Below, in pieces: positions 26,374 to 63,285 of a DNA stretch of 64,000 nucleotides. The notes beneath the pieces are model-generated. The model searched no databases, was not told where the DNA came from, and worked only from the letters and a program-made list of their open reading frames with translations. Each line of letters begins with the position of its first letter. Positions within the stretch are counted from its first letter, which is position 1. The position numbers and the translations under genes are program-made. The DNA lies in the UHGV virus genome UHGV-1430452; one strand, 5' to 3'. The stretch comes from a virus.

Positions 26374-26421
26374 ATATATATCATGGTTGTGTTTCTTTTA
26401 TATCGCCACCATGATATATAT
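26374..26421. repeat. 14-bp perfect inverted repeat with 20-bp spacer (candidate attP core or operator)
   Basis: ATATATATCATGGT at 26374-26387 and its reverse complement ACCATGATATATAT at 26408-26421. Confidence 0.4.
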
Positions 26422-26468
26422 CACAGGGAAACTATTCTAAACGTTGATATATCAAGGAGGAGATATAC

Positions 26469-28929: not shown

Positions 28930-28945
28930 TGCTCATCACCTCCCC

Positions 28946-41549: not shown

Positions 41550-44500
41550 TTATATCCTCCTTTCTATCACGGCTGCTCTTACAATTTCTTTAACAGCTTC
41601 TGTAATATTGCTTCCATCATCATAAGTAAGACCGTTAATGTTATATGAAACACCACCAACATTACCTAAGTCTTTACGAAGTCTGTTTATTGCTGAAACA
41701 ACATCATCCATAGATCCATTTTGAATTCTTTCACCCATCATAGAATTTATGGTGTTTAGTCTTGACATTACTCCCAATGTAGGAGTTCCATTCAACATGC
41801 CGTTAATTGCACTAGCTCCAGATTTAATATCAGACAAATCAAGGACTGGTCTTATTGTCGGCTGAGTGTTGATATCTCCGTCAAGAAGACTCGAAATTCT
41901 CGACATTGCTGTTTGAGTACTGTTAACAGCGTTATCGGACATTCTAGAAATAGATTGTTTCACTAATCCTCCGAACATACCGATACCCTTAGCAAATCCA
42001 ATAGGAACATATGAACCTATTTTCATGAACACCCTTGAAGGTGAATGAATAGCAAGATTAGCCCTAGCTGCTGCCGATGCTGCCGCTGCCATTGAAGCTG
42101 CTGCATTTGCCGCCGACCAAATGTTCGCTTGAATACCTGCTACAAATCCGCTAGCTACATAAGATCCAGAACTATAAAAGCTTGAATAATATCCTCTAGT
42201 AGAAGATACTGCTGAAGACAATATCGACGTTGTTGTGTTCACAACACTTGAAGCTCTACTTCGCATACCGTTTACGAATTGTGTCATTAAAGCAACGCCA
42301 TTAGTTCCAAATACGGATCTTTTACTGCTAATAGCTTTAAGCATCGAGTTGATAATATTGGTAGCTGTTGATGTTACCAATGCTTGTTTTGATTTCAAAC
42401 CATTAGAGAAAGATGTAATTAAGTTCGATCCAATGTTCGACATCTTAGACGTTGAACCACTAAATGATTTAGTAATACTATTCATAGAAGTTTGACCCAA
42501 AGTAGATACAGCAGTTTTAAACGATGCTACGCCGCTTGTGTTAAGTCCGGCCAAACTACTAATAAAATTCTTAATCTTAGTAGCCGCTGTTATAGAGCTA
42601 GATATTGATCCGACATTTATACCTGCAACAGAATCAGAGTAACTTTTTAAAGTACTTCCGATAGTTCCTATCTTAAAGTTTGAAACTCCACTAGAATCCA
42701 AACTTGATAGTCCCTGAATAAAAGTCTTTAATCTATTTGCCGCAGTAACAGAAGATGTAACTTTACCAGAGTCCACATTTTCAACCGACTTAGAGTAGCT
42801 CTTCAAAGTAGTTCCAATAGATCCTATTTTGAAGTTACTAACACCACTACTATCCAATCCCGTAAGACTTGATACAAAATTTCTAAGTCTATTTGCTGAT
42901 GATATGGATGATGAGACTATACCCGGGTCCATATCTTTAACGGAGTTTCCGTAGTCCTGCATAGCCTTACCTATGGAATTAATCTTGAAGTTTTCAATAC
43001 CGCTTGTATCAAGACCCACCAGACTAGCTATTAAACTCTTAAGTCTTAAAGCTACTGAGACTGCTGTGTTTACTTTAGCGATATCGATATCGGCTACAGA
43101 TTCTCCGAACTTACCTATAGCCTGTCCAATATTAACCAAATGACCGTCTCCGGCTCCAACACCTGCAAAGCTACTAACACCACTTGCATCGAGATCGGCT
43201 AAAGCGGTAATCAGGTTTTTAATCCTATAAGCGGCTGTTATGGCGGTGTTTATACCATCAGAGTTTATGTTTGCAGCGTCTGTTGAGAATGTAGTCATGG
43301 CCGAGCTGAATTTTTCGACGTATTTTGAGAATTCCTCAAGATTCATCTTACCGTCAAACCAGCCTTCTTCTGGAAGGGCTTCTTGAAGAGCTATAATAGC
43401 GCTACCTGCATTCGTTACGGATGTTACGACTGCTTCCGATATACCGTCCTCTCCCATTCCGGTTTTAAGTTTGCCCATAGCTGTAGCAAATTGACCTATG
43501 TTTTCGCCAAAAGTTCCTAAGTCATCTTTTCCGGTAAACCAGTCGATTACTCCTCCCATATTCTCAAGAGAAGATTGTAATCCAGCAAGTTTAGTAGCCG
43601 CATTTATAATAGAAGTAATTGAATCATCATCTATTTTTGTATCTCCTAAATCGGCAAAAGCAGTTTTCATCGATCCCATAAAGCTAGCGACACTAGACCC
43701 AAAAGTCCCTAAGTCGTCCCTTCCAGTGAACCAGTCAACCACTCCTCCTATATTTTCAAGCGATGACTGCAAGCCTGATAATTTAGTAGCTGCGTCGATG
43801 ATTATGCCGATTGCTTCGGTATTTATTTTGACTCCGTCTAAGCTTGAAAATGCTTTTGTCATAGATCCTATAAATAGACCTATATTTACACCAAATGTGC
43901 CGAGGTCGTCTCTACCTTTAAACCAGCTTATTACTCCACCTATTGGTTCGAGTGCTGACTGCAATCCTGCTAATTTAGTTGATCCATCGATAATGGTAGT
44001 CAAAGCTTCAGAATTAAATTCAACACCATCAAGACTCTGAAAAGCAGTTTTCATAGAGAATATAAATTGAGCTACGTTTGTTCCAAAAGTTCCAAGATCA
44101 TCTCTACCTTTAAACCAACTTATTACTCCGCCTATAGGTTCCAATGACGATTGTAAATTAGCTAGAATAGTAGTAGCACTTATTATTGCGGTTAATCCTT
44201 CTGTGTTTAAAGTAATTCCTTCTAGATCAGAGAACGCAACTTTCATGGAAGATATGAATTCTCCTACACTTTCTCCAAATGTGCCGAGGTCGTCTCTACC
44301 TTTAAACCAGCTTATTACTCCGCCTATTGGTTCAAGGCTAGATTGAAGTTTACTCAGTTCAGCAGCTCCAGTAATGATCGATGTTAAAGCTTCCGTATTG
44401 AAGGATACTCCGTCAAGACCTAGAAAAGCATTCTTCATTGAGAATATAAATTGACCGACGTTAGTTCCGAAAGTCGCGAGGTCATCCCTGCCAGAGAACC

Positions 44501-47500
44501 AATCCATAACACCGCCTATAGGCTCCAATGACGATTGTAATTCGCTAAGTTTCGTTGCTACATTTATCACAGCGCCCATTGCCGCCTCGTCTATTGTGAT
44601 TCCAGCAGAAGCTTGCGATATCGCTTTCATAGCATTGAAGAACGCAACACCATCGGTCTCAAACTTCTCCATAGAAGTACCACCGAGAGTGAATATGTCA
44701 GCGATAGAAGTACCAACTGTTGTAAATCCTATCTCTGCCATAGCACTCATTAAATCGGACACGCCATCGAAAGATCCTGATTTAATACCACTAGCATTTT
44801 CGCTTGCTATAGCTAGTTTGTCCATGAAATCAGCAATATTTTGACCTATTTCCGGTAAACTTCCGGTAATACCTTCTCCGATTCCTCCTATGAATGCTCC
44901 GATTCCTTTGCCGATTGCGTTTCCTATTTTTCCTAATAATCCACCGCCAGCTTCAACAAGGGACGAAAAACCTGGAATTTTAGATAACCCACCGATTGCT
45001 GCCAGAAGTACTGCTATCTCAGCTATTACAGCACCAACGGCTAATACTCCGGTCATTGCTGGGCCGGCTAAAGCTCCAGCTCCGGCGAATACTTTCATCA
45101 ATATTCCGATTACTCCGAATGCACCTATGCCTTTTAGCATAGTATCCATATCTAAATTGCCTATCGAATCGACGATACCTTTGACAACTTGTCCGACAAA
45201 ATTCATTATTGCCGATATTAATTCTGGAGTATGCTCGGCAAGACTATTAATAACTCCGATTATAAAACCGAGAAGTGAATCGACAATCTGTGGTGCATAC
45301 TGTTCTAATGCGTCTAAAACGCCTAAGAGCAGTTTCAGAAAACTTTCAGCCAATTGAGGTGCATATTCTCCTATAACTTTTGCGATTTCGACGATACCTC
45401 GACCTATTACTTCAGCAATTTGTGGAATCAATCCTAAAATACCGGTGATTATAACTGTTATTGATGCGACAAGCGCTGTGGCACCAGCAGTTCCAGCAGT
45501 AGCAAGAGCTGTGAATCCAGCTGATAGAGCAAGTATACCAACGCCAATTCCAGCTATAGCTACAGCAAATATAGCCATCGCAGCGGATAAACCAAGTATT
45601 GCCGGAGTGAGTGGACTCAGAAGAGCTCCAGCTACTCCTATTACTACAAAGGCTCCAGCAAGAGTTACGAGACCTTTTACTATGCTCTCCCAACTCATAG
45701 ATCCTAATGATTTCAATACAGGTGTTAAAATTGCTAATCCAGCAGCTGCAACAACTAATGCGGCAGACCCCTTAAGAGATCCACTCATGGCTTTTAATCC
45801 AATAGATAGCTCGACCAAAGCTATTCCAAGTACAACGAGTCCTTTTCCTATACTCTCCCAGCTCATCGATCCTAATGATTTTAAGACTGGAGTTAATATA
45901 GCAAGTGCTGACGCCATCAAAAGCATTTGACCGCCGAACTTAGCGATAGATCCACTACCCTTGCTCATAATTTTAGAAGCTAACACCAGCATTGTAACAA
46001 TACCTAATATTCCAGCTCCACCTTTAGCTAATTCGTTCCAACTCATAGAACCCAAACTCTTACCAACAGCAGCCAAAATGCCAACCGCAGCTGACATGAT
46101 AAGCATCTGTCCAGCAAATTTGGTTATAGACTTACTTTCAGTATTCATGAGTTTGGCAGCACCAACTAATATAGCGACTATTCCTAATATTCCGGCCCCA
46201 CCTTTGGCTAATTCTTCCCAACTCATTGAACTGAGAATTTTAGCGACTCCAGATAACGCTGCTATTGCTGCTGATAATATAAGCATCTGTCCAGCAAATT
46301 TGGTTATAGACTTACTTTCGGTATTCATAAGTTTAGCAGCCGCGACGAGTATAGCTACCATTCCACCAATACCAACGAGGCCTTTTGCTACACCGTTCCA
46401 ATCAAGTCCAGCTATAATTTTCATAGCGCCTGCTAATATAAGAATAGCTGCTCCGAGTCCAATCATCTGAACAGTTCTAGCTATACCTGACAAACTTGAT
46501 ACTATACCAGATAAAGGTTTGACACTTTTGCTGTTTATTTTTTCAAGCACTGCTAATGCAGATATCAACTCTACAAACAAACCGCCTATTGCGCCTAAAG
46601 AACTTCCGAGTTTATCCTCGTCTATTCCAGATATGACAAAAAGAGCCGCTGCCAGTATTCCAATAGCACCCGCTATTTTTAGCAATGTTCCGGCTTTAAG
46701 ATTCTGTTGCCATGATTCCAAACTTCCCTTAACGCCATCAAGTATTTTTTTAACGTTATCTAAGAAACTTATTTTTTCGAATGGATCAGATAATCCTTTA
46801 ATAAAGTTTCTTATGGCTAGTAATATTCCAGCAAACAATCCGCTGTTTAATACTTCGAAAATATCGCCTTTACCAAAGGCATCGGCTATCATATTACCTA
46901 TATCGGAAAAAGCTTCTCCGATGGCCGCGCCAACCGACTTTATAGTGTTCCATAGACCGGAAAAGAAGCCAAGAAAACCTTGAAGTGTAGGAGAAATCTT
47001 AAAACTCTCAATAAGTGAGCGTCCAAACTCTGCTATTTTTGAAATCCCGTTGCTAAGAAATCCAACAATTTTATCAACTGCGTCGCCAAACAGATTTCCT
47101 TCTACTATGGAGTCTCTCACATTCGAGATAAAATCTCCAAAAGAACTCGTTGCATCCAGTATTCCTCCACCAAGTCCGGTGAAGTTTCCAATAATATCTA
47201 GAGCGCCTTTTCCAACAGCTTTAAAAGCCTCTATAACAATATCGATAGCGGAAAAGATTCCTTTAAATGTAGATTTTATTTTAGATGCAGCGCCTTCACT
47301 TACTTTTAAAGTATCAGTGAAAGCTTTGAATCTATCAATCATACTTACTACTTGGTCGACTGTAGTAGGTGGAAATATCTCTCTAAAAGCTTCTTTTATC
47401 GGTTTTATTATATCTCCAAGGAATTTGAATATATTTTTCAAACCCTCTATAATTTTTTCTCTACCGCCAAGCTCGGTTATTCCATCGATAAGACCATCTA

Positions 47501-49097
47501 TGTTGTCTTTTAATTTATTCGTAGATTCGTTTGCTTCATTTAGCGCTTTTAATGTAGCGTCATCAACGATACCTGTTATTTCTAAATCGTTAGCTTCCTG
47601 AAAAGCTTTAATAGCTGACTCTGTGGCACTTCCGAAAATTCCATCAGCACCAGAATCGCCAATATCATAGTTAAGGCTTTGTAATGCTTTTTGTACTTTT
47701 GTTACGTCGTCTCCTGTATTACCTTTCGATAAACCGGCTTCGACTCCACTTAAATCTACAAGTTCGCCTTTTAATCCGCTAACAGCTTCTTTTAAAATAT
47801 CAGAAGATATGGCACCAGATTGAAAAGCTTTTTCTAGAGAACCATATTTTTTTATGATCTCGTCCATATTAACGCCATGGTCCTCAGCAATCGATCTAAC
47901 TTTTTCCTCAAAAGTATCGGTTTCTACACCAGCTTCATTTATTTTTTTTACAAGCTTATCCCAGTTAGAAGACATCGCGCCTTCCAATAATTCGTTACGA
48001 GATTTCGCTGATGATTCAACCATCTTTCCAATGGTATCTGAAATTCCAGTGAACAATTCTTTGGAGTCTTCAAAATCACCGACAAGTATTCTCCAAGTTT
48101 GACCCCATCCAGATTGGAGAGATTCTTTTACCGTATCTATCAGCTGTGTGAATGTTTTTACTTTTGTAGCAGCGTCTTCAGCGTCCTTCGCTAAAGCCAT
48201 AATATCGTTTGCTTGAGATTCGCTATAACCTTGGGCAATAAGATCGGCCTTACTATATGCGCCAGACAATTGGTTAAGAGTTTCAGTTAATACCTCGGTC
48301 GTTAACCATTCACCTTTTGTTAGGCTTTCTCTAAAGCTGCCATATGTATCAATAGCTTGTTTAGCGCCTGTTCCCAAAAGTTCAGACGTTCTAACAAGTG
48401 CGTCCTGAAATACCTTACCACCCATACCGGCATTAACAACTGAGTTCCAGTCCATAAGACTAACTTTACCTGCCGCCAATGCCTGAGAAAGCTGATACAT
48501 CGCAGTAGATGCCTGTTGAGAAGTTGATCCAGAAACTGCGGCCAAGTTCGCAATACCTTTAATAGCATTAACTGAGGTATCAAGTTTTACACCAGCTGCT
48601 GTAAACGTACCGATATTACGAGTCATTTCCGTAAAATTGTAAATCGTCTTATCGGCATATGTATTTAGCTCATCTAAAGCCTTATTTACAATATCAACAT
48701 TAGTGCCTTCCTGCCTTGTATTGGATAGAATTGTCTGAATAGCACCAATCTGAGTTTCGTATTCTTGGAAACCGCTTTTAACCGGATCTATAGTTAATGC
48801 TGATATCATACGTTTACCAGTGTTAACAGCCTGGTTAGTGATGTTTGCTAAAGCAGTTACACCAGCGACCTGTAGTGCTGAAAATTTAGCCTGAACTGTC
48901 TCTATACCACTGCTCATTCCTGCAAAGCTAACACCTTTAGCAGCCTTACCGACATTCTCCAACCCTTTGGAGGCACCAGATAGATTTAACTTTTGTTTGA
49001 GCTTATCGAGAGTTGACATACTGGTTGCGACTCCGCTCTCAAACTGCTTATTGTCGAACCGCATCTCCAAGACTCTGTTGTCAATAGTCGTACTCAT
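41550..49097 (-). CDS. tape measure protein (2515 aa) with internal repeats and a peptidoglycan-binding domain
   Basis: N-terminal tape-measure domain (GFQEYETQIGAIQ...MYQLSQALAAGKVSLMDWNS); PG_binding_1-like segment DDVTKVQKALQSLNYDIGDSGADGIFGSATESAIKAFQ; repeated ISWFKGRDDLGTFG and TM-rich blocks. Confidence 0.85.
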   Translation of the reverse strand: MSTTIDNRVLEMRFDNKQFESGVATSMSTLDKLKQKLNLSGASKGLENVGKAAKGVSFAGMSSGIETVQAKFSALQVAGVTALANITNQAVNTGKRMISALTIDPVKSGFQEYETQIGAIQTILSNTRQEGTNVDIVNKALDELNTYADKTIYNFTEMTRNIGTFTAAGVKLDTSVNAIKGIANLAAVSGSTSQQASTAMYQLSQALAAGKVSLMDWNSVVNAGMGGKVFQDALVRTSELLGTGAKQAIDTYGSFRESLTKGEWLTTEVLTETLNQLSGAYSKADLIAQGYSESQANDIMALAKDAEDAATKVKTFTQLIDTVKESLQSGWGQTWRILVGDFEDSKELFTGISDTIGKMVESSAKSRNELLEGAMSSNWDKLVKKINEAGVETDTFEEKVRSIAEDHGVNMDEIIKKYGSLEKAFQSGAISSDILKEAVSGLKGELVDLSGVEAGLSKGNTGDDVTKVQKALQSLNYDIGDSGADGIFGSATESAIKAFQEANDLEITGIVDDATLKALNEANESTNKLKDNIDGLIDGITELGGREKIIEGLKNIFKFLGDIIKPIKEAFREIFPPTTVDQVVSMIDRFKAFTDTLKVSEGAASKIKSTFKGIFSAIDIVIEAFKAVGKGALDIIGNFTGLGGGILDATSSFGDFISNVRDSIVEGNLFGDAVDKIVGFLSNGISKIAEFGRSLIESFKISPTLQGFLGFFSGLWNTIKSVGAAIGEAFSDIGNMIADAFGKGDIFEVLNSGLFAGILLAIRNFIKGLSDPFEKISFLDNVKKILDGVKGSLESWQQNLKAGTLLKIAGAIGILAAALFVISGIDEDKLGSSLGAIGGLFVELISALAVLEKINSKSVKPLSGIVSSLSGIARTVQMIGLGAAILILAGAMKIIAGLDWNGVAKGLVGIGGMVAILVAAAKLMNTESKSITKFAGQMLILSAAIAALSGVAKILSSMSWEELAKGGAGILGIVAILVGAAKLMNTESKSITKFAGQMLIMSAAVGILAAVGKSLGSMSWNELAKGGAGILGIVTMLVLASKIMSKGSGSIAKFGGQMLLMASALAILTPVLKSLGSMSWESIGKGLVVLGIALVELSIGLKAMSGSLKGSAALVVAAAGLAILTPVLKSLGSMSWESIVKGLVTLAGAFVVIGVAGALLSPLTPAILGLSAAMAIFAVAIAGIGVGILALSAGFTALATAGTAGATALVASITVIITGILGLIPQIAEVIGRGIVEIAKVIGEYAPQLAESFLKLLLGVLDALEQYAPQIVDSLLGFIIGVINSLAEHTPELISAIMNFVGQVVKGIVDSIGNLDMDTMLKGIGAFGVIGILMKVFAGAGALAGPAMTGVLAVGAVIAEIAVLLAAIGGLSKIPGFSSLVEAGGGLLGKIGNAIGKGIGAFIGGIGEGITGSLPEIGQNIADFMDKLAIASENASGIKSGSFDGVSDLMSAMAEIGFTTVGTSIADIFTLGGTSMEKFETDGVAFFNAMKAISQASAGITIDEAAMGAVINVATKLSELQSSLEPIGGVMDWFSGRDDLATFGTNVGQFIFSMKNAFLGLDGVSFNTEALTSIITGAAELSKLQSSLEPIGGVISWFKGRDDLGTFGESVGEFISSMKVAFSDLEGITLNTEGLTAIISATTILANLQSSLEPIGGVISWFKGRDDLGTFGTNVAQFIFSMKTAFQSLDGVEFNSEALTTIIDGSTKLAGLQSALEPIGGVISWFKGRDDLGTFGVNIGLFIGSMTKAFSSLDGVKINTEAIGIIIDAATKLSGLQSSLENIGGVVDWFTGRDDLGTFGSSVASFMGSMKTAFADLGDTKIDDDSITSIINAATKLAGLQSSLENMGGVIDWFTGKDDLGTFGENIGQFATAMGKLKTGMGEDGISEAVVTSVTNAGSAIIALQEALPEEGWFDGKMNLEEFSKYVEKFSSAMTTFSTDAANINSDGINTAITAAYRIKNLITALADLDASGVSSFAGVGAGDGHLVNIGQAIGKFGESVADIDIAKVNTAVSVALRLKSLIASLVGLDTSGIENFKINSIGKAMQDYGNSVKDMDPGIVSSSISSANRLRNFVSSLTGLDSSGVSNFKIGSIGTTLKSYSKSVENVDSGKVTSSVTAANRLKTFIQGLSSLDSSGVSNFKIGTIGSTLKSYSDSVAGINVGSISSSITAATKIKNFISSLAGLNTSGVASFKTAVSTLGQTSMNSITKSFSGSTSKMSNIGSNLITSFSNGLKSKQALVTSTATNIINSMLKAISSKRSVFGTNGVALMTQFVNGMRSRASSVVNTTTSILSSAVSSTRGYYSSFYSSGSYVASGFVAGIQANIWSAANAAASMAAAASAAARANLAIHSPSRVFMKIGSYVPIGFAKGIGMFGGLVKQSISRMSDNAVNSTQTAMSRISSLLDGDINTQPTIRPVLDLSDIKSGASAINGMLNGTPTLGVMSRLNTINSMMGERIQNGSMDDVVSAINRLRKDLGNVGGVSYNINGLTYDDGSNITEAVKEIVRAAVIERRI
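43300..46400. repeat. in-frame tandem repeats inside the tape measure gene
   Basis: Recurrent protein blocks (PIGGVISWFKGRDDLGTFG x5-6; GILGIVAILVGAAKLMNTESKSITKFAGQMLI x2-3) and matching DNA periodicity; boundaries approximate. Confidence 0.5.
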
Positions 49098-49471
49098 ATC
49101 TTAGTAACCTCCCTCCAGGCCTCTTCTGCCATTTTGTCAAAAATAGGCTGAATCGCAGGATTGATATAATCTCTCCCTTGAACCCAGCCTCCAGTACCAG
49201 TCCCATGACCATATTGCAAAATAATAGCGATTGGTACACCTTTATTAATGTTAGAGTTTGTAAAAGTAATCTTTGCTGATCCGGATGTATTCTCAATTTC
49301 GTATCCCCACGATTTAGCAGTCAATCCAGATTCTACAGGAGTAGCAGACATAAGAGCAGCCACCCCTTCCCGACCATATTTGTCGAGTACGCTGAGCTTT
49401 GCATTCCCTTTAAGTTTCTCAAAATATCGAGTAACTTTAGAGAAGTCTCCCTTATGTCTGAAACTAATCAT
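49094..49471 (-). CDS. tail-module hypothetical protein
   Basis: 125 aa, 4-nt overlap with the tape measure start. Confidence 0.35.
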   Translation of the reverse strand: MISFRHKGDFSKVTRYFEKLKGNAKLSVLDKYGREGVAALMSATPVESGLTAKSWGYEIENTSGSAKITFTNSNINKGVPIAIILQYGHGTGTGGWVQGRDYINPAIQPIFDKMAEEAWREVTKI

Positions 49472-49486
49472 TTTGATCTTTCTCCT

Positions 49487-51205
49487 TTACAGTAGCTCGT
49501 TAACTCGATCCTGAATTTTCTGAATCATGTTGTGATCGTATCCAGCTTTTGCGAGGGCATTAATTCGTGCATCTCCATTACCGTATTTTCCGGCAATGAC
49601 ATCACGGGCTACATTATCAATCACTATCTGATTTACTTTCTTCTGCACAGTGTCTGGATTATAACCAGCTTTCTTGAGAGCAGACACACGAGCATCACCA
49701 TTACCCCATTTTCCAGCTAAAACCTCTTTAGCTACTTCATCGATAGATTTAGTAGGTTTTGCAGGAGCTTTAAGTAGTTCATTCACTTTCTTCTGTACAG
49801 TGTCTGGATTATAACCAGCTTTCTTGAGAGCAGACACACGAGCATCACCATTACCCCATTTTCCAGCTAAAACCTCTTTAGCTACTTCATCGATAGATTT
49901 AGTAGGTTTTGCAGGAGCTTTAAGTAGTTCATTCACTTTCTTCTGTACAGTGTCTGGATTATAACCAGCTTTCTTGAGAGCAGACACACGAGCATCACCA
50001 TTACCCCATTTACCGGCGATTACTTCTTTAGCAATTTCATCGATAGATTTGGTCGGTTTTGGCGTAGATGTAGGTTTAGATGTTGGTGCTGGTGTGGAAG
50101 AACTTTTCGCATATTTTGGTCTAGCAAAACCACGAATCATACCCCAGCCAACCGGAATGGTACGTCTTGCTACTGCTTCTCCTCTGTTACCTTCAATCGC
50201 TGTGATTTGTCCGTTTGAAACAGATTCCACATACCCGATATGATCAGAATATCCGTCGTTTGGCTGAGTCTTATCATCCCAGTTATAAACAATTACATCA
50301 CCAGGTTTCGGAGTAATGGTGCCGTCCTCGACCCAAATGCCTTTCTGCTTAAAAATCTTAATATGTTCCTCACAACCAACTTCTGTACCGATGAGATCGA
50401 CTGCTCCGGATTTGATAGCTGCTGCTGATACTGTACAATCACACCATTCATCATTAGGTTTAATAGCGTATCCGCGAGCCAAAGGTTTGTGAGAATTATA
50501 GATGTTAAGAATCTCAATATATTTACCGTTAGCTTCAGAATAACCGAGCCAACTTCTCATAACATTAAGAACGTCCTGTGCTGTTACACCCAATTCCGTA
50601 TCCTCCTGTTTTCCGTAAAAATAGTTCATGTCGACTTTACCTTTAATACCGCCTACAGTTCCGGAACTCGTATACTGATGAACCAAACAACCGTAATCTG
50701 CTTTTCCGTTATAATCAGCGAGCCAGAATTTGTACTGTTTAATCAGATCATGATTATACCAATTTCGATAGTAGTCGATATTTGCGTAGATTCCAGCTTT
50801 GTATCCCTGAGATTCTACGTACTCACAAAAGATTCTTGTAAAGTTATTACATTCATTTTTACCAAGTCTCACACCTTTTGCAGCTGCTTTCTTGACTGTG
50901 TCATATTCGAAATCTGCGAAGATGATTGTGTTTTTATCAAGACCAGCTTTTCTAACAACATCAACACAGAATTTTGCTTCGTCAAGTGCGCCCTGTTCGT
51001 TTAAGGCATAAATAAAATGGTAAGTTCCTATAATCGGAATCTTGTTGTTTTTACACCCATTGACATACTCATAGAATTTTGAATCTACTGTCTTCCTGTA
51101 AGAAGATCTAAGAATCGCGAACTCTATTCCGGAGGACTTGACTTTAGAAAAATCTACATCTCCCTGCCAATAGCTGATATCAATTCCTTTCTTCACAATC
51201 ATCAT
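49487..51205 (-). CDS. peptidoglycan hydrolase: GH25 muramidase + CHAP-like domain + four CW_7 cell-wall-binding repeats
   Basis: GIDISYWQG GH25 N-terminus; Cys/His segment DEWCDCTVSAA...SDHIGYV...IEGN; 4x IDE(V/I)AKEV(L/I)AGKWGNGDAR(V/I)SALKKAGYNPDTVQKKVN. Confidence 0.8.
   Translation of the reverse strand: MMIVKKGIDISYWQGDVDFSKVKSSGIEFAILRSSYRKTVDSKFYEYVNGCKNNKIPIIGTYHFIYALNEQGALDEAKFCVDVVRKAGLDKNTIIFADFEYDTVKKAAAKGVRLGKNECNNFTRIFCEYVESQGYKAGIYANIDYYRNWYNHDLIKQYKFWLADYNGKADYGCLVHQYTSSGTVGGIKGKVDMNYFYGKQEDTELGVTAQDVLNVMRSWLGYSEANGKYIEILNIYNSHKPLARGYAIKPNDEWCDCTVSAAAIKSGAVDLIGTEVGCEEHIKIFKQKGIWVEDGTITPKPGDVIVYNWDDKTQPNDGYSDHIGYVESVSNGQITAIEGNRGEAVARRTIPVGWGMIRGFARPKYAKSSSTPAPTSKPTSTPKPTKSIDEIAKEVIAGKWGNGDARVSALKKAGYNPDTVQKKVNELLKAPAKPTKSIDEVAKEVLAGKWGNGDARVSALKKAGYNPDTVQKKVNELLKAPAKPTKSIDEVAKEVLAGKWGNGDARVSALKKAGYNPDTVQKKVNQIVIDNVARDVIAGKYGNGDARINALAKAGYDHNMIQKIQDRVNELL
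49530..50130. repeat. 150-bp tandem DNA repeat (about 4 copies, two identical) encoding the CW_7 repeats
   Basis: Copies starting 49681 and 49831 are identical over ~150 bp; flanking copies diverged. Confidence 0.8.
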
Positions 51206-51762
51206 CCTTTCGAATTGAATTTCTTTCTTCGAGCTGCATTCATTTCAGCATAACGACTCATTAATTCTCGCTTACTTGTCTGTTTAGGTGGCTCATTGTG
51301 AGCACTACATACCCTTATCAAAGTAATAAGTCTATTAAGATGCCATTTTTCACACTCAAATGGAATATTGTTTGCAATCATCCAATAATATATAAGCTCT
51401 GACGTTATGATCTCTCGATTTTTCTTTCCAGATCTTCTGTCATTGATAGTAGTTGCTGTCATTGGAGCATAAATATAGTCAGTTATTTGCTTTAAGTTAT
51501 CTTCACTTAACCGACCATACACACTTGGATCAACATTCTTATTGAGTGTCATACACCTTATGTAATCTATTGTTTCTTCAATGGTTTTCTCTTTATTTGT
51601 ATAAAAAGGTTTACACCATTTTGATTCCCATTTTGAAAGAGAGATGAGTGAATGTTCTAATTGTAGTGTCTGCTCTTTCTGAGCTGGCACGGGTATAAAC
51701 ACTTGATTTCCTTCATCCCATAATTCGTCAGCTTCTCTAGCAGGTACTATAATCTGAATCAT
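51202..51762 (-). CDS. tail-module hypothetical protein
   Basis: 186 aa; GGAGGG RBS. Confidence 0.4.
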   Translation of the reverse strand: MIQIIVPAREADELWDEGNQVFIPVPAQKEQTLQLEHSLISLSKWESKWCKPFYTNKEKTIEETIDYIRCMTLNKNVDPSVYGRLSEDNLKQITDYIYAPMTATTINDRRSGKKNREIITSELIYYWMIANNIPFECEKWHLNRLITLIRVCSAHNEPPKQTSKRELMSRYAEMNAARRKKFNSKG

Positions 51763-51791
51763 TACTCATCCCTCCATTGTGTTCGAATTTA

Positions 51792-52205
51792 TTAAGCTCC
51801 TGGAAGCAGATTCTTTGAATTAGCTTCCTGTGCAACATCAGCCGGAACGATGCCGTTAATAAATGCCGCTGCTGCTTCTGCGTCTGTAGCAAGTTCCATG
51901 AAGAGTGTGGAATAAGCTTCTGTCTGTGAAAACTTTCTTGACAGTGGTCTTCCGTCCTCATCAAGTTTCATGAAACCTTTACCATCCGGAGCCTTTTCTC
52001 CATATGCTTTAAGAATAAGATCTTTAAAGATAGCTACGATTGTCGGAGTATCCTGTGCTGCCACGACTTTCTCAATCATCTCAGCGAATCCACCAACTGT
52101 AGATAATTCCATCTCCATAATTTCTGCTTTAGAAAGGTTGAAGTAATATGTATCTTCTCTTTCTACTCCGTTGTAATCTGTGTATTTAATAGCTTTTTTT
52201 AACAT
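51792..52205 (-). CDS. putative tail assembly chaperone
   Basis: 137 aa acidic protein directly after the major tail protein gene. Confidence 0.4.
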   Translation of the reverse strand: MLKKAIKYTDYNGVEREDTYYFNLSKAEIMEMELSTVGGFAEMIEKVVAAQDTPTIVAIFKDLILKAYGEKAPDGKGFMKLDEDGRPLSRKFSQTEAYSTLFMELATDAEAAAAFINGIVPADVAQEANSKNLLPGA

Positions 52206-52241
52206 GTTGTTCTCCTTTCAATTTTTCAACGTTTAATAATT

Positions 52242-52276
52242 AAAAAAAAAGACCCCACCTATTGCTAAGCGGGGCC
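52242..52276 (-). terminator. intrinsic terminator after major tail protein gene
   Basis: Minus-strand CCCCGC/GGUGGGG stem followed by a run of 9 U. Confidence 0.6.
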
Positions 52277-52301
52277 TATCGTTATTCCATTACTTAGTTA
52301 C

Positions 52302-52967
52302 TTACGCACCTGTCGTAGTTTTCATCATAGTAGCAACCTCATCCGGGAGTGGAAGTCTTGCTTCTGTATCCTCGTCACCGTAAAGAACTGCCTCCAGTGC
52401 TGCCAGTTTAGTTGGATCAGCTGTGGTAGAGTCGATTATGAGATGAGATGTAGGTTTGAAATTAGCTACAGATACCGGAGTAGTACTACACTCCCAGGAC
52501 ATAGTAGCCGCTTCCGGACTATCATTTACAGTCGCACGAGATACTTCGGAAGGAGCTGCAAGAGCACCGTATACCAGATGCAGTTTGTAACCATGTGATT
52601 CGCCCTCTGTATCATTACCAATAAGGCTTCGATAAGATAAACCGAAATTTTTACGTTTCTGCTGTCCAATCTTAACGCCGGTTGCAATTTCTCCTTCACC
52701 GTTACATTCTGCGAATTCATCGGGATACATATAAGCTTCGATTGTGAAACCAAATTCCTCAGCGGACATAAGTGTCACATACTTAATGTTATCTGCATAG
52801 AGCGGTGTCGGTTCTGCTCCAGATGGTGATTCTGTTACAGCTGTAAGACCATTCCATGCTGCTCCTTTCGGATAGTTTCCATCAGTTCCCATTGGATAAA
52901 TTACGCCATGATCGACGCCAGTTTCAAACAAACGTTCGCCTGTTGCGTCCCATACAAGTTTAGCCAT
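52302..52967 (-). CDS. major tail protein
   Basis: 221 aa, position between head-tail genes and chaperone, followed by a strong terminator. Confidence 0.5.
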   Translation of the reverse strand: MAKLVWDATGERLFETGVDHGVIYPMGTDGNYPKGAAWNGLTAVTESPSGAEPTPLYADNIKYVTLMSAEEFGFTIEAYMYPDEFAECNGEGEIATGVKIGQQKRKNFGLSYRSLIGNDTEGESHGYKLHLVYGALAAPSEVSRATVNDSPEAATMSWECSTTPVSVANFKPTSHLIIDSTTADPTKLAALEAVLYGDEDTEARLPLPDEVATMMKTTTGA

Positions 52968-52981
52968 ATTTGATTTCCTCC

Positions 52982-53302
52982 TTAATAATATAGCGTTAAT
53001 ACATCGTGATTGAGATTATCGGCTTTATACAGCCTATCGTAAGAGCAGTATGGAAGTTCCATAAGCTTCTGTATAACAGGATTATCCGGTAATTTACTAA
53101 TCACGGTAATGTCATATTTCCTACGTGTTAAATATGTTGAGTTGTTAGCTTTCATGGTTTCGATATCACTTAATGAATACACAATAGCTGGATAACTCAT
53201 TTGAAGTGACGCTGGGGGTTGATAGAAAACCTGGTTACTACCAAGAAGTTCTTCAAGTTTCGCTTGTAGTTCTAATCTACTAGCCACGCCACACACCCCC
53301 AA
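52982..53302 (-). CDS. head-tail joining protein (putative)
   Basis: 106 aa between capsid and tail genes. Confidence 0.35.
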   Translation of the reverse strand: MGVCGVASRLELQAKLEELLGSNQVFYQPPASLQMSYPAIVYSLSDIETMKANNSTYLTRRKYDITVISKLPDNPVIQKLMELPYCSYDRLYKADNLNHDVLTLYY

Positions 53303-53621: not shown

Positions 53622-55559
53622 TTAGGCAGTTTCTTTCACGAATTCAAGAGCTACTGCGGAATACGGTTTAACAAGTGTACCGGAGCAACGTGTCTCCATA
53701 AGATACTTCTGCTTGTTGTAATCGATATCGAAATCATCGAAGAAGTTGATTTCTCCACCCTTATCTGTACCTACGTTGTAATCTTTAAGATTTACATAGA
53801 TACCAGCAAGCTCATATGTCTTATTTTCATCGTCTGTTCTTGTAAGACCTTCCATTACCGGAACCGGAACGATTTCTCTTACGCGAAGAGATGCTGCAAG
53901 TTTCTGTACGCTATCATAGATAACACGTCCGTTTGTATCTTCAATGAGCAAGCAATCTGTAAGCATATCCTCAGACATGAACATATCAGGGTTGCCAGAT
54001 CCTTTATAATTCTTTCTGGATTTGATGCAAGCTTTGATGAATGCCTTAGCTTTCTCTTCAGCAGTAGCGGAATCGCTTACATTGATAGCTGCTTTAACTG
54101 TGAAAAGATCTTCCATCTTCCAGATAGGTCTGATGCAGTCCTCATTGATTTTATCGTTAGCCTCTTCAACCGGATCTCTTCCATCACCGATAAGGAATGC
54201 GCGAGCAAGTTCCTCATCAAGCATCATACGAACTTCTCTCTTCAGCCATGGAAGAATATCGAAATCTGTAATATCAAGCATGTCATCGCGATCTAATGCC
54301 TGTTTCTTGTATACAGTTGTTGGATTTGTTACACGTTTGAGAAGCTTAAATACTTCTTCAATTTTAAGTTTGCCTTTCTGGTATCCCTTTGCTCTAGCCT
54401 GTGCTGCTGTGATGTCAGCAAAGATAGTTTTGATACGGGAGAACGGTGTGTGATGTACTCCGCCAAGTACTTTTGATACCCAATCGTCATTACGTTTGAT
54501 AAATTCCGGTTCATTGTTAAGATTCTTTGCATCCGGGAATAAGATGTCAATGTCTGTGATACCATGAGCAAGCACTGCCTCTTTAAGAGAACCTGAGCGT
54601 TTCGCATCTTCGAAAATCGCAGTCATCTCGGAGTGTGTAAGCACATCATCTGCCATAGGGGTTTCATTGTCGAATACGTTGTGTTTCATATTTTTGTTTC
54701 CTCCTTCATTTTCATCATCTTCTTCGGTTTCAACACCAGCATCTTCTAATGCCTGTCCGATCATAGCGTACACAACAGTTTTCTGTTTCTCAGAAAGAGT
54801 GTTGAATACATCAGCTACAGTTTCTTCTTTGTTTTCTCCCTTTGTTTCTTCCTCGGCATGTTTTACTTCTTCCTCAGAATGGGTTACTTCTTCTTTGTCT
54901 GGTTTATCATCGTTTTCTTCTTTGATACCAGCATCTTCTAATGCCTGTCCGATCATAGCGTACACAACAGTTTTCTGTTTTTCAGAAAGAGTGTTGAATA
55001 CATCAGCTACAGTTTCGTCCTTATTTTCTTCGGCATTATGTTTTTTGGTTTCTTCTGCCATTTTTTCTTCTCCTTTCTCAGAAGTATCTGCGTGGAACAA
55101 TGACTCCACATTTTCGATATATTCGCCTGAGCTGATATATCCCTCTTCATAAGAATCTTCGCCATGCATCATGACAGACTCTATTACTGCGCCTGGATTA
55201 GCACCAGCTAAAACCAAACTAAGCTCACGAATGACTCCGTGAACTACATTACTTCCCTGCTGTTTAAGTCTGTTGGCATATATGGAAAATCTATTCACAT
55301 CACCATGCTGAACCAGCAATTTAGCATTCTGCCCTGATTCCGTATCGTTAAATGTGCAATATGCATACACACCTTCGTCCCTGTTTTCCAGCAAGGCATG
55401 ACCGAGCACTTCATCTACGCTATTATGCTGATGATTCCAAACTAACGGTACAGTTTCACCATCGCACTCTTTGAATGCATCTTTCATGATGACTCTACCG
55501 TCCGCACACAGCATGTCAGCTTTAGTAGCCCAGCCAGAACAATCATATGACTTAGCCAT
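53622..55559 (-). CDS. prohead protease - scaffold-like linker - major capsid protein fusion
   Basis: N-terminal prohead-protease-like region (VPLVWNHQ...FSIYA...ELSLVLAGANPGAVI); acidic linker with duplicated ETVADVFNTLSEKQKTVVYAMIGQALEDAG; ~350-aa C-terminal capsid-like domain. Confidence 0.6.
   Translation of the reverse strand: MAKSYDCSGWATKADMLCADGRVIMKDAFKECDGETVPLVWNHQHNSVDEVLGHALLENRDEGVYAYCTFNDTESGQNAKLLVQHGDVNRFSIYANRLKQQGSNVVHGVIRELSLVLAGANPGAVIESVMMHGEDSYEEGYISSGEYIENVESLFHADTSEKGEEKMAEETKKHNAEENKDETVADVFNTLSEKQKTVVYAMIGQALEDAGIKEENDDKPDKEEVTHSEEEVKHAEEETKGENKEETVADVFNTLSEKQKTVVYAMIGQALEDAGVETEEDDENEGGNKNMKHNVFDNETPMADDVLTHSEMTAIFEDAKRSGSLKEAVLAHGITDIDILFPDAKNLNNEPEFIKRNDDWVSKVLGGVHHTPFSRIKTIFADITAAQARAKGYQKGKLKIEEVFKLLKRVTNPTTVYKKQALDRDDMLDITDFDILPWLKREVRMMLDEELARAFLIGDGRDPVEEANDKINEDCIRPIWKMEDLFTVKAAINVSDSATAEEKAKAFIKACIKSRKNYKGSGNPDMFMSEDMLTDCLLIEDTNGRVIYDSVQKLAASLRVREIVPVPVMEGLTRTDDENKTYELAGIYVNLKDYNVGTDKGGEINFFDDFDIDYNKQKYLMETRCSGTLVKPYSAVALEFVKETA
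54736..55018. repeat. ~90-bp duplicated module inside the capsid fusion gene
   Basis: Near-identical DNA at 54736-54825 and 54929-55018. Confidence 0.7.
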
Positions 55560-57194: not shown

Positions 57195-57791
57195 CTATGG
57201 TGTTGATGGATTAAGACTTTCAGCGATTTTAGCGTCTATGTATGAATGTATTTCAGCTATATCCGCTTCCGTCCAATAATCAGTACCTCTGACAGGTGTC
57301 TTCCCATCAGTACCAGGATCTCCTTTTGGTCCAGCATCACCAGTATCACCTTTTGGTCCCTGAACACCCTGTTCACCTTGAGGTCCGGTTAATCCTGTAT
57401 CTCCCTTTGGACCCTGAATACCTTGTTCACCTTGAGGTCCAGTAGCTCCGGTATCACCTTTTGGTCCCTGGATACCCTGTTCACCTTTCGGGCCTGTAGC
57501 TCCGGTATCACCTTTCGGACCTTTAAGACTAGCTAACCATTCAGTCTCGCTTCCTTCGAAACCAGTAGAAAGCGCTACTTGATAAGCAGAATCACCTGGA
57601 TCTCCTTTTTCACCAGGAGGGCCAGGAGTGGTTGAACCAGTTCCTCCGTTAGTAATGAGCTCGCATAATTCCCAAAGCAATTCTTCAGCTCTAGACTGAG
57701 GTCTCGGCAATCCTTCAGTACCTTTCTGTAAGATAGTATTTTTCATATATTCTTCAAATCTACTATCCGGTATGTATGTTTCATCGATCAT
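57195..57791 (-). CDS. collagen-like repeat protein
   Basis: 198 aa; GPKGDTGATGPKGEQGIQGPKGDTGATGPQGEQGIQGPKGDTGLTGPQGEQGVQGPKGDTGDAGPKGDPG. Confidence 0.55.
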   Translation of the reverse strand: MIDETYIPDSRFEEYMKNTILQKGTEGLPRPQSRAEELLWELCELITNGGTGSTTPGPPGEKGDPGDSAYQVALSTGFEGSETEWLASLKGPKGDTGATGPKGEQGIQGPKGDTGATGPQGEQGIQGPKGDTGLTGPQGEQGVQGPKGDTGDAGPKGDPGTDGKTPVRGTDYWTEADIAEIHSYIDAKIAESLNPSTP

Positions 57792-58144: not shown

Positions 58145-59878
58145 CTATTCAAAAGCATCCTTGTTCAGTTTATAAGCAACGAACGCATCCATAAGTGCTG
58201 CAACGCAGTCAATCTTATGCTCTCGTTTGCGTTTATAAAGTTTTCTGTTACCGTTGGTGTCTTCAAGGGTGATACAGTTTCCCATAGCAAACGACATGAT
58301 CTCTTCATCGAATCGAAGCATTCTCTCTTCAGAAAGGTTCTTTAATTCTCCAAGAGGAATAGATTCTGTCTTTGCTCCCTGAATTACTTTCTCAATACCA
58401 AACGGACCATTCTCGGTTTCCCATCTATTAACAAATTCCTTTGCTCCATACGGGTCAAAGCCGAAACACCGAACATCGTAATCACTATCGATAATATGTT
58501 TATCCAGATCGTCGTAAACTTGCATCATATCGAGGATCGCACCGTCGAGAACTATCAAACTACCTTCATTCATAAACTGATCGTATTTCGTCCGCATAGC
58601 TGCTGGTAATTTCATCAGAGTTAATGAAGAAATATAGTTTCTAGTCTTAATACCGAACGTTCCATCCTGTAAAGGGAACATAAATGAGAATGAGCAAAAG
58701 TCGTCTCCCTGCGATAAGTCTGCTCCCATAGCACAAGGTAATCCCCAGTAATCTCTACGTCTATGAGGTATTGTCTCTTCATAAGTAAAGTAATAGGTAT
58801 AACCTTCCAACGGGATTCCAAATCTTTTCGCAAGAATATCGTTCTTTGCTGCTGGGTTCTGTTCGGCTCTTTCCACGTCAAGCTGATATGCTTCAGGGCT
58901 AACGGTCTTTCCAATATTCGGATTAGCCTTAAGCCACATTTCTGGATTTCCTACTTCCTCAATATCATCGAGCTTATACCACCAGATTGATACGTGAGGA
59001 TTAGTGTACTCGTCTCGAAGAATCTTAGATAATTCCATTTTGATTGTGTCGCCGCTACCATTTCGTACAGTACCTTCTGAACTGGTTGCCACAATAAGAT
59101 AATCATCATTTTTTGAGGCACCCTGTTCAACAGCACCAACGACGTCTTCTCGTACATCTCCTGATAGCCATTCATCTATAGTGGAGATCTTATCTCTTCG
59201 TGACTGCAATTTATCGATGGACATTGGTAGAACTTCGATTATTGAATTTGTAAGGAAGTTCTCTACACCCTTTTTCGTACTAGCTAACTTCTGTCGATTC
59301 GCCCTTGAGCCTGTAGTATTCTGTAAAGAGCCCTCTGTTAAGAATTTAAACAAAGGACCTCTAGCTCTTGCTATAGCTGTACGAATAGGAGCTAATGTTG
59401 CTTCTGATTGTCTCATTGTCGGCGCGGTTACTAATTGCTGAGTAGTACTCGTGTCGACATTTAAAAAATAAGCCTGAATACATGCCGCATACATCGATTT
59501 AGCAGCACCTCTGGCTACGATCAAATACTGTTTGTTAACCAGTCGTTTCTTAATTCTCTTGGTAACATATCGTCCTTCGTCGTAGTCATAGACTGATCGT
59601 TCAACGAAGTAATACCAACCGAAAATCTGTTCCGCCCAAAGTTTAAACGAATCAAGTAAATGTAGATCTTCGCCATCAGTTAATGTGAGTTCGTTCTCAC
59701 AATAATTAATAAAACCCTGGATCGCTTGGTCGTCATACCAAATTCCAGGGTTAGCTATAAGATCATCTATTCGATTCATCTCCATCGAGATTTCTTTACA
59801 TATTGGGATTTCTCCTCGCATGACCGCCTCTCTAAAGCGGCCGTAATATTTCGGAACAGCCGTGTTTGAAAGACTCAT
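58145..59878 (-). CDS. terL: terminase large subunit
   Basis: 577 aa; Walker A-like LIVARGAAKSMYAA; ATPase and nuclease halves in the usual order. Confidence 0.8.
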   Translation of the reverse strand: MSLSNTAVPKYYGRFREAVMRGEIPICKEISMEMNRIDDLIANPGIWYDDQAIQGFINYCENELTLTDGEDLHLLDSFKLWAEQIFGWYYFVERSVYDYDEGRYVTKRIKKRLVNKQYLIVARGAAKSMYAACIQAYFLNVDTSTTQQLVTAPTMRQSEATLAPIRTAIARARGPLFKFLTEGSLQNTTGSRANRQKLASTKKGVENFLTNSIIEVLPMSIDKLQSRRDKISTIDEWLSGDVREDVVGAVEQGASKNDDYLIVATSSEGTVRNGSGDTIKMELSKILRDEYTNPHVSIWWYKLDDIEEVGNPEMWLKANPNIGKTVSPEAYQLDVERAEQNPAAKNDILAKRFGIPLEGYTYYFTYEETIPHRRRDYWGLPCAMGADLSQGDDFCSFSFMFPLQDGTFGIKTRNYISSLTLMKLPAAMRTKYDQFMNEGSLIVLDGAILDMMQVYDDLDKHIIDSDYDVRCFGFDPYGAKEFVNRWETENGPFGIEKVIQGAKTESIPLGELKNLSEERMLRFDEEIMSFAMGNCITLEDTNGNRKLYKRKREHKIDCVAALMDAFVAYKLNKDAFE

Positions 59879-59921: not shown

Positions 59922-60494
59922 TTAACGACCATAACGAGCATTGTTCAATATTCTTGACACATAGGTTCGTCCAGTCTTTTTGTATGCTTCTTGAGATTCG
60001 AGCAACATAGCATCTGCCTTATCAGATAATCTTGAAGCATCTTCGAACATTTTATTATACTCCTTAGCATCTGCTGTTTTGTTCTGTGCAGAAGCTATAA
60101 ATCTTGAAACTGCGTTTTTACCAAGTTTCTTGCGCTGCTCTTTAACCTGATTCCACTTTGCATCAGCAACATCACTAGCTTTTGATGCTGCATCAACCTT
60201 TTTAGAATAATCTTTTACTGCTGATTTTTTGGCATCTACTTTCGCTTTCTTTATGTCGGCTTTTGCTTCTCTTAAAGAAGCCTTAGCTGCATCTCTTTGG
60301 ATCTTATTACCTTTTCGAATAGCTCCAATACCGTTCAACTGACCAGAATTCCTAGCTGCTTTACGAGCTTCTAATCCATCAGCTCTGGCTTTCTTAGAGG
60401 CTTGTCTAAAGGTCGGCTGATCGCTTCTCCTTCTAACTCCCCACTTCATGCCTTTTACACCGTAGTGCATTAATTTGTCATCATAGTATCCCAT
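59922..60494 (-). CDS. leader-sharing paralogue 4 (190 aa, Lys/Ala-rich coiled-coil)
   Basis: N-terminus LMHYGVKGMKWGVRRR shared with the three genes upstream; sits in the usual small-terminase slot. Confidence 0.5.
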   Translation of the reverse strand: MGYYDDKLMHYGVKGMKWGVRRRSDQPTFRQASKKARADGLEARKAARNSGQLNGIGAIRKGNKIQRDAAKASLREAKADIKKAKVDAKKSAVKDYSKKVDAASKASDVADAKWNQVKEQRKKLGKNAVSRFIASAQNKTADAKEYNKMFEDASRLSDKADAMLLESQEAYKKTGRTYVSRILNNARYGR

Positions 60495-60523
60495 TTTGAA
60501 TTTTCACCTCTTATCTCAAATAG

Positions 60524-61660: not shown

Positions 61661-61677
61661 TTTGACTCACCTACCTC

Positions 61678-62736: not shown

Positions 62737-62739
62737 AAC

Positions 62740-63285
62740 TTACTTACCACTTAGCGCTTTGATGGCTAAAGCAATGCTTAATGCCGACCCGGTTACTGCT
62801 AAAACATCACCGGTGGTTTCTAGCATTCTACTAGCATACTCGCGTCCTTTCGTGGTTTTTTGAGGAGCAAACATATCATTATATTGTTTCTCCAAAAGAG
62901 CTCTATTAATCTGATCACGCATTTCTTTATCGGTCATGTTGCTTAAGTCCATCTTTTGTTTCGGATTATTTCTGATAGACTTATCGGTCATGGTCTTTAT
63001 ATTACGGCTCAGTCCAGCAGTAGCATCGGTCAAAGATTTGGTTCTTTCCAAGTCTTCTTTAACATATCGTCTAGCATCTGCTATGTTGTCAGTTCGACCG
63101 TTCTTTTTAGACTGCTTATAATAAGTACCAGTAGACTCATCATACTTATTAAATTCTTTTTCTCTAGAGTCTCTTTCATATCTCTTCTGACCTTTTTCAG
63201 TAAGAGTACCATCCTTGTTCTGGTATCTTCTTACTCCCCATTTCATGCCTTTAATTCCATGATGATAGAGTTCATTATTGTCCAT
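62740..63285 (-). CDS. leader-sharing paralogue 1 (181 aa)
   Basis: N-terminus NELYHHGIKGMKWGVRRYQNKDGTLT; C-terminal hydrophobic helix. Confidence 0.5.
   Translation of the reverse strand: MDNNELYHHGIKGMKWGVRRYQNKDGTLTEKGQKRYERDSREKEFNKYDESTGTYYKQSKKNGRTDNIADARRYVKEDLERTKSLTDATAGLSRNIKTMTDKSIRNNPKQKMDLSNMTDKEMRDQINRALLEKQYNDMFAPQKTTKGREYASRMLETTGDVLAVTGSALSIALAIKALSGK

Follow-up and report, generated by a model that had tools for sequence, protein, structure and literature searches.

Does a peptidoglycan hydrolase encoded among phage tail genes belong to the tail, or can it be the enzyme that ends the lytic cycle? The virus genome UHGV-1430452, of which we analysed a stretch of 64,000 nucleotides (the window), raises this question. 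The window comes from an uncultured, temperate siphovirus-type phage, and a first-pass annotation made from its sequence had placed the only recognisable lysin inside the tail operon, 21 kb from the holin. Two explanations were offered: either the lysis cassette is split, or the lysin is virion-associated and the true endolysin is one of the unassigned genes at 28294-29281. Our analysis makes the split cassette the probable arrangement: the GH25-CHAP-CW_7 protein would be the phage's endolysin, whose gene has a fixed place (the slot) among the tail-assembly genes of the late operon, with the holin and its XhlA-like partner 21 kb downstream. This reading is grounded directly in the architecture and catalytic residues of the protein, its lack of an export signal, synteny, and the contents of the same slot in relatives.

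Gene order around the lysin

The late operon occupies the minus strand between about 63,950 and 27,665. It starts with DUF7211 paralogues and a connector protein, followed by the large terminase subunit (58145-59878), the portal protein, a protease-capsid fusion protein and DUF7253, and then the major tail protein. From there the order is chaperone, 186-aa gene, lysin, 125-aa gene and tape measure gene. Tail and fibre genes lie downstream of the tape measure gene, then the holin gene and, as the end of the operon, the XhlA-like gene; beyond it, on the opposite strand, are a serine integrase and a repressor-like gene. The features of the tail-assembly part are:

52302-52967, minus strand: major tail protein (phrog_2645)
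52250-52277, minus strand: terminator-like hairpin just 3' of the major tail protein gene, the sole one in 48800-53000
51792-52205, minus strand: tail assembly chaperone (PF23803 Phage_TAC_17, E=1.6e-37)
51202-51762, minus strand: conserved 186-aa protein, the upstream anchor of the slot (phrog_4338)
49487-51205, minus strand: probable endolysin gene, 572 aa, GH25 + CHAP + four CW_7 (Pfam and PHROG matches)
50645-51184, minus strand: GH25 muramidase domain, aa 8-187 (PF01183 Glyco_hydro_25, 103 bits)
50186-50446, minus strand: CHAP domain, aa 254-340 (PF05257, 34.6 bits, cut-off 26)
49490-50041, minus strand: four CW_7 cell-wall-binding repeats, aa 389-572 (PF08230, 243 bits, E=9.9e-74)
49094-49471, minus strand: 125-aa tail completion/Neck1-like protein, the downstream anchor of the slot (phrog_5, E=1e-13)
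41550-49097, minus strand: tape measure protein, 2515 aa, with PG_binding_1 at aa 461-519 (47541-47717)

These genes are tightly packed. The stop of the 186-aa gene overlaps the lysin start, 15 bases separate the lysin stop from the 125-aa gene, and the stop of the 125-aa gene overlaps the tape measure start. Promoter-like sites around the lysin show no excess over chance, and the GC content of the lysin gene is the same as that of its flanks. A programmed frameshift joining the chaperone and 186-aa ORFs is unlikely, since a 29-bp gap lies between the two and the 186-aa gene is equipped with a ribosome-binding site and an ATG of its own. As a minor point, the lysin may start at GTG 51196 instead of ATG 51205.

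Such a location favours another reading, in which the lysin is virion-associated and digests the wall locally at infection from a place on or in the tail, with a separate endolysin for lysis. The gene lies within the tail module, its start overlaps the stop of a tail-module gene, and it is tightly packed with the neck-like structural gene on its other side. Gene position is used as a cue in the field: Klyczek et al. considered a role in infection more likely for an amidase encoded in a tail module (PMC5513430). The PG_binding_1 module of the tape measure protein likewise suggests that the virion engages the wall; in that protein we detected no catalytic domain, only PG_binding_1 and tape measure matches. 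We nevertheless regard a virion-associated lysin as unlikely, on the grounds of the protein itself and of its homologues described below.

Domain architecture of the lysin

Pfam, PHROG and gene order bear out the first-pass description of a GH25, CHAP and four-CW_7 protein encoded between tail-module genes and the tape measure gene. The GH25 and CHAP scores both exceed the Pfam cut-offs. The acidic residues of GH25 are in place (D9, D98-x-E100 and D192), as are Cys255 and His322 of CHAP, and the GH25 domain aligns with the solved GH25 structures 4jz5 and 4kru. The C-terminal part matches the Cpl-7 wall-binding domain 5i8l (E=6e-33) and consists of four stretches of ~40-50 aa each, the tandem arrangement of PF08230, with the motif GK[WY]GNGD at aa 398, 448, 498 and 539. 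No signal peptide or transmembrane segment was seen in a crude hydropathy scan (maximum 1.02, below threshold), and GH25 begins at residue 8. GH25, CHAP, a linker and CW_7 account for all 572 aa, so that Pfam and PHROG searches over the full length leave no structural or attachment domain.

The protein therefore has sequence features of a canonical holin-dependent modular endolysin of Gram-positive phages: catalytic domains with their residues, a C-terminal wall-binding domain and no export signal. Holin adjacency, a usual trait of endolysins and not a strictly defining one, is absent. Two catalytic domains plus wall-binding repeats, with nothing left over to anchor the protein in a virion, argue for an endolysin. 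Virion-associated hydrolases such as TP901-1 Tal, the phiIPLA35 tape measure protein and T4 gp5 resemble the lysin in their tail-gene location and peptidoglycan-cleaving domains, but are usually domains of larger structural proteins and usually have no wall-binding domains, as reviewed in PMC6024856. The window lysin shares only the tail-module location with them; it is a stand-alone protein with four wall-binding repeats and no structural fusion.

A closer counterpart is the Cpl-7 lysozyme of the pneumococcal phage Cp-7 (GH25 and three CW_7), which likewise has GH25 followed by near-identical tandem CW_7 repeats. The Cpl-7 repeats are perfect at the DNA level. Unlike Cpl-7, the window lysin carries a CHAP domain between the GH25 and repeat regions and has four 50-aa repeats, and its gene lies within the tail operon and not beside a holin gene.

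The holin and the genes beside it

Four genes at and near the end of the late operon bear on whether a lysin adjoins the holin:

28294-28929, minus strand: 211-aa tail-fibre-like carbohydrate-binding protein (two CBM5/12 modules)
27976-28269, minus strand: holin, 97 aa, Hol44 family (Phage_holin_5_2; PF16079, 45.1 bits, cut-off 29.2; phrog_1129)
27665-27973, minus strand: XhlA-like protein, 102 aa (XhlA and SlyX matches weak, under cut-offs)
27017-27568: 183-aa protein, predicted helical bundle

The holin, encoded by the penultimate gene of the late operon, is small, has two to three hydrophobic segments in a crude hydropathy scan and scores above the cut-off, features by which it is predicted to be a Hol44-family member. 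Its gene lies in the same operon as the lysin, 21,218 bp downstream of the lysin stop codon, and the distance given in the first-pass annotation is thus accurate. The product of 27665-27973 has one N-terminal transmembrane helix (aa 6-24) and a coiled coil, and is likely the holin's partner.

Pfam, PHROG and fold checks found no lysin domain in the holin's neighbours, which are the tail-fibre-like CBM protein, the XhlA-like protein and the helical protein; here too the original observation stands. The proposal of a true endolysin at 28294-29281 is not supported. A domain search of 28294-28929 returned two CBM5/12 modules and no endolysin domain. The AlphaFold2 model of the 211-aa product (pLDDT 89) consists of a small beta domain, a long helix and the two CBM5/12 modules, and in Foldseek it matches only carbohydrate-binding modules (chitin-binding) and phage tail fibres, which rules it out as a lysin. 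By eye, the 111-aa ORF in the same interval is similar to a 93-aa ORF that follows the other fibre gene. The 102-aa protein at 27665-27973 is also ruled out as a lysin, its domain search having given only the weak XhlA/SlyX matches and no endolysin domain.

The search for a second lysin

A panel of 98 lysins from common families was compared with all 149 ORFs of at least 70 aa on the two strands of the window. It matched only the lysin under study and, in the tape measure protein, the PG_binding_1 segment. With no other catalytic match, the claim that this is the only recognisable lysin holds for the window, and the 7.7 kb past the window start contain no lysin-like ORF either. Two contigs from different samples end at one calculated point ~32 kb past the window start, and this common end point indicates a genome of ~96.5 kb. 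Over ~72 of these ~96.5 kb (the 64-kb window and the 7.7 kb), the phage has a single recognisable endolysin and a holin many genes away. The lack of another lysin-like ORF in this part favours the endolysin reading and weighs against a virion-associated lysin, which calls for a separate endolysin. Extending this walk in IMG/VR with a DUF2828 protein reached only unrelated phages.

The size of the genome allows the lysin to be a second, accessory enzyme, the main endolysin being encoded in the remaining ~24 kb or being cryptic, for example the 183-aa protein at 27017-27568. Of the ~32 kb past the window start, 7.7 kb are covered. Relatives, too, vary in where their lysins are encoded, which may be upstream of the terminase gene (Rima, Caterpillar and Tanis) or near the holin (FP_oengus). 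Yet the site upstream of the terminase gene, used in the actinophages, holds only DUF7211 and connector proteins here (it lies in the window except for ~650 bp), and the remaining ~24 kb come after the replication genes. Searches with the 183-aa protein (Pfam, PHROG, PDB and a fold search with its model) gave no match, which leaves room for a cryptic function, but the protein is modelled as an all-helical bundle with no lysozyme-like match, which argues against a lysin, and its gene is set off from the late operon by a 96-bp gap. Like the 211-aa and 102-aa proteins, it was rejected as a lysin. Since one complete endolysin suffices, we consider an accessory role for the lysin quite improbable.

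Homologues of the lysin and the slot in gut relatives

The protein family of the lysin has 4,050 matches, in human-gut Lachnospiraceae and Blautia data. Among isolated phages in the phage collection no close homologue was found, the best reaching 56% coverage and 41% identity, and in the Coprococcus and Agathobacter 'NatCom' phages lysin placement is ordinary. Two proteins of Lachnospiraceae prophages match the window lysin over its full length and with the same GH25-CHAP-CW_7 layout, but their genes occupy lysis-type positions: P0004 (61% identical) closes the late operon of a myovirus, after an XkdX-like gene, and P0024 (56% identical) directly follows a Phage_holin_1 gene. That such close homologues hold lysis-type positions in unrelated phages argues for an endolysin and against a virion component.

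In nearer relatives the tail-module position is conserved. The contigs L001 and L006/L007 share the window's gene series from the chaperone through the 186-aa gene, the lysin and the 125-aa gene to the tape measure gene, and the catalytic part of the L006 lysin is 81% identical to that of the window, with neighbours at 79-92%. The shared order, and a catalytic part that diverges in step with its neighbours, indicate that the position is inherited. The wall-binding part is exchanged within the slot: L006 has SH3_3 in place of CW_7, and P0006 is a GH25 + CHAP + SH3_3 protein. In the gut prophage MT835495.1 the slot is filled by an unrelated Amidase_2 + SH3_3 protein, while its Hol44 holin stands alone at the prophage end.

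For a wider sample we used the 186-aa protein as query and fetched 80 loci from IMG/VR, 68 of which have both anchors. The slot is occupied in 59 of the 68 (724-2310 bp) and empty in the other nine (12-103 bp), counts that include near-duplicates and are not independent. All but one of ~35 representative slot proteins, scanned singly or together, have a peptidoglycan-hydrolase domain. The catalytic domains found are GH25, Amidase_2, Amidase_3, CHAP, ELLD, Amidase_2 + Phage_lysozyme2 and S8 + CHAP, mostly accompanied by a wall-binding module (CW_7, SH3_3, SPOR, LysM or PG_binding_1); the exceptional protein has PG_binding_1 and an N-terminal part without a domain match. The slot proteins have no common region (mean column identity 19%). 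This replacement of one unrelated lysin family by another argues for an endolysin, and it is hard to reconcile with a tail component, as being lysins is all that the occupants have in common.

One or two extra small ORFs are present in 30 of the 59 occupied slots. Of the ones inspected, almost every one has between one and three hydrophobic segments, and some belong to phrog_34925. That slots often hold small membrane proteins as well, which are candidate holins, also speaks for the endolysin reading and against a virion-associated lysin. If they are holins, the slot would be the whole lysis cassette in those phages. On the other side, none of these small proteins matches a named holin family, and this weakens the argument.

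The location of the holin gives a mixed picture. Three relatives that have a slot lysin and a Hol44 holin on one contig have no lysin beside the holin, as in the window, which supports the endolysin reading. We had also considered that an empty slot might go together with a lysin beside the holin. This holds in FP_oengus but not in three IMG/VR relatives whose slot is empty and which have no recognisable lysin beside the holin or elsewhere in the 32-34 kb covered. Slot and holin locations are therefore not simply complementary, and we dropped the argument.

Taken as a whole, the endolysin architecture, the lysis-type positions of homologues and the presence of unrelated endolysins in the same slot support the split cassette put forward in the first-pass annotation.

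The slot in the wider supergroup

Homologues of the 186-aa protein are found in phages of Faecalibacterium, Streptomyces, Arthrobacter and Gordonia (42-61% identity) and in a Lactococcus phage (37%); isolated phages of these five groups have homologues of all three genes (186-aa, Neck1-like and tape measure), at 34-58% identity. The Faecalibacterium phage FP_oengus (Oengusvirus) has the same tail-module order as the window, with homologues of the chaperone, 186-aa, Neck1-like and tape measure proteins (43-58%). Its slot is empty, however, as is that of CHPC971, and the Peptidase_M15 endolysin of FP_oengus is encoded near the holin, with one gene between them, where the tail genes end.

In the actinophages (Streptomyces, Arthrobacter and Gordonia) the annotations of slot genes include major and minor tail proteins. 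In Streptomyces phage Rima the slot comprises three genes, one for a GH46 'chitosanase'; a CW_7 endolysin is encoded upstream of the terminase gene there, and the holin gene follows the tail genes. Arthrobacter phage Caterpillar places its endolysin and holin likewise, and the slots of Caterpillar and Qui hold several genes annotated as tail proteins. In Gordonia phage Tanis the gene directly before the Neck1-like one encodes Lysin B; Lysin A and the holin lie 15 kb upstream. Scattered lysis genes have been described in such phages: Lysin B lies ~15 kb from Lysin A in cluster DJ phages (PMC9671378), and endolysin positions vary widely in Arthrobacter phages (PMC5513430). The annotated tail proteins in actinophage slots weigh against the endolysin reading and, together with the Rima GH46 enzyme, for a virion-associated one. 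The window differs from the actinophages in that its slot enzyme is the peptidoglycan endolysin itself, in a phage of a Firmicute host, and in that its arrangement is the majority state among the sampled gut relatives.

The range of enzymes found in the slot invites a broader idea, namely that the slot is an ancient cross-phylum docking site for envelope-degrading enzymes throughout this siphovirus supergroup, a fraction of which is co-assembled with the tape measure protein, a bearer of peptidoglycan-binding modules, and delivered at entry, making each a dual lysis/entry enzyme; we hold this to be very doubtful. As for the window lysin, some of the endolysin might be carried in the tail, perhaps together with the tape measure protein, and aid entry. 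This would explain why, in phages of hosts from different phyla, the genes just ahead of the neck-like and tape measure ones encode varied envelope-degrading enzymes: peptidoglycan hydrolases in phages of Firmicutes, Lysin B in Tanis (Gordonia) and GH46 in Rima (Streptomyces). Such packaging is highly improbable, however, given that the lysin has no docking domain, that FP_oengus, CHPC971 and 9/68 relatives keep their tail genes with an empty slot, and that actinophage slots also hold non-enzymatic genes.

A model for lysis from a split cassette

With the lysin as endolysin, lysis would proceed as follows. The enzyme's gene would be transcribed together with the tail genes, probably with translational coupling to them, and because the enzyme has no signal peptide it would accumulate folded in the cytoplasm. 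At the end of the cycle the Hol44-type holin in the membrane would fire. The lysin would then get to the wall, where the CW_7 repeats would dock on peptidoglycan, the GH25 muramidase would cut glycan strands and CHAP would cut peptide or amide bonds. Adjacent genes would not be necessary for this, since both are late genes on the same strand and a cytoplasmic endolysin should be harmless until the holin triggers. From this model we infer the enzyme's part in lysis timing, its dependence on the holin and its absence from virions.

Displaced lysis genes are already recorded in the literature, and the present case is an ordinary variation on a known theme, of mainly practical value. Heuristics that look for a lysin beside a holin when delimiting prophages or lysis modules would mis-annotate this large group of human-gut Lachnospiraceae phages, and calling every hydrolase in a tail module a tail lysin would have the same effect. 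Diverse endolysins matched to their hosts can be mined from the slot, along with small membrane proteins (phrog_34925 and others) as holin candidates.

Variation in the CW_7 repeat

The CW_7 region had been described as a 150-bp DNA tandem repeat with two identical copies and a probably unstable copy number, and the data agree on each point. The feature is:

49631-50061: 150-bp DNA tandem repeat (Tandem Repeats Finder: period 150, 2.9 copies, 95% matches)

The longest exact run at a 150-bp offset is 215 bp (50011-49797), which implies two perfect 150-bp units. In contig L001, whose flanks are 99.98% identical to the window, exactly one 150-bp unit is missing, giving a lysin of 522 aa; the CW_7 copy number therefore varies in nature. 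Variable perfect repeats of this length are a practical caution for short-read assemblies, which the CW_7 repeat may break. The metagenome contig k109_3767 matches 20 kb of the window at 100% identity and, by our coordinate calculation, begins inside the repeat.

Enzymes at the slot position

Different kinds of envelope-degrading enzyme recur across phyla in the slot between the 186-aa gene and the Neck1-like gene, which in the window holds the lysin. The homologous slot of Streptomyces phage Rima encodes gp21 (L011/L012 13969-15765), which is 598 aa long and has a GH46 'chitosanase' domain, and that of Gordonia phage Tanis encodes a Lysin B, gp27 (L183 14978-15763). Homologs of the lysin are also found in other settings: in an unrelated phage (L008 9737-11704), terminase and portal genes flank a holin and the homologous lysin, and in a myovirus prophage with a homologous lysin, the tail fibre gene is followed by one for a reverse transcriptase (L004 7250-8377), possibly part of a diversity-generating retroelement.

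In relatives L037-L102, small proteins of 64-158 aa adjoin slot lysins and are likewise encoded in the slot, as at L039:5923-6546 and L048:11354-12063. Nearly all have one to three hydrophobic segments, which makes them holin candidates; some are assigned to phrog_34925, and none of those in L037-L102 matched a named holin family.

The tape measure protein has a peptidoglycan-binding module that is also kept in the 99.98%-identical contig L001 and in L006 and L007, which belong to the window's own lineage; a search of the protein for a catalytic domain found none. In relatives whose slot is empty, the tape measure proteins contain lysin-like segments at ~aa 340-510, which are probably CW_7-like.

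47541-47717: PG_binding_1 module of the tape measure protein (aa 461-519)
43879-44547 and 45997-46364: tape measure gene, internal DNA repeats of ~290 bp and ~190 bp that have diverged to 78-79% identity (secondary BLAST hits)

Genes following the lysis genes

Next after the holin and XhlA-like genes lies a gene for a 183-aa protein, which is kept in close relatives only (12 hits). It is predicted with moderate confidence to form an all-helical bundle (pTM 0.82), and a PDB fold search with this model returned no match. The inverted repeat and tandem genes at 26364-26968 could represent an attP region or a moron.

27017-27568 (-): 183-aa protein
26364-26431: 24-nt inverted repeat, directly past the serine integrase gene
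26469-26968 (+): two tandem paralogous 83-aa genes, after the inverted repeat

Structural genes, paralogs and genome ends

The prohead protease (Peptidase_S78) and major capsid protein are fused in one 645-aa ORF (53622-55559), as they are in Arthrobacter and Gordonia relatives. Three structural proteins contain collagen-like repeats, with one of the hits being weak, and a 594-aa tail protein contains Listeria-Bacteroides repeats. The tRNA-like gene detected by ARAGORN could encode a tRNA that has degenerated or is of an unusual type.

54709-55029: diverged internal DNA repeat in the capsid gene, ~130 bp, 91% identical (secondary BLAST hits)
57195-57791, 35182-36306, 29271-31703 and 32014-33798: structural-protein ORFs with repeats
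12029-12967, 15042-15869 and 17330-18106: three DUF6353 paralogs, early region
59922-63285: four DUF7211 paralogs, upstream of the terminase gene
15958-16031 (-): tRNA-like gene, undetermined two-base anticodon

By coordinate calculation, the contigs behind L001 and L020, which come from different samples, share an end point ~32 kb past window position 1. At the other side, L001 begins ~650 bp past position 64000. These positions suggest that the genome has defined ends and is ~96.5 kb long.
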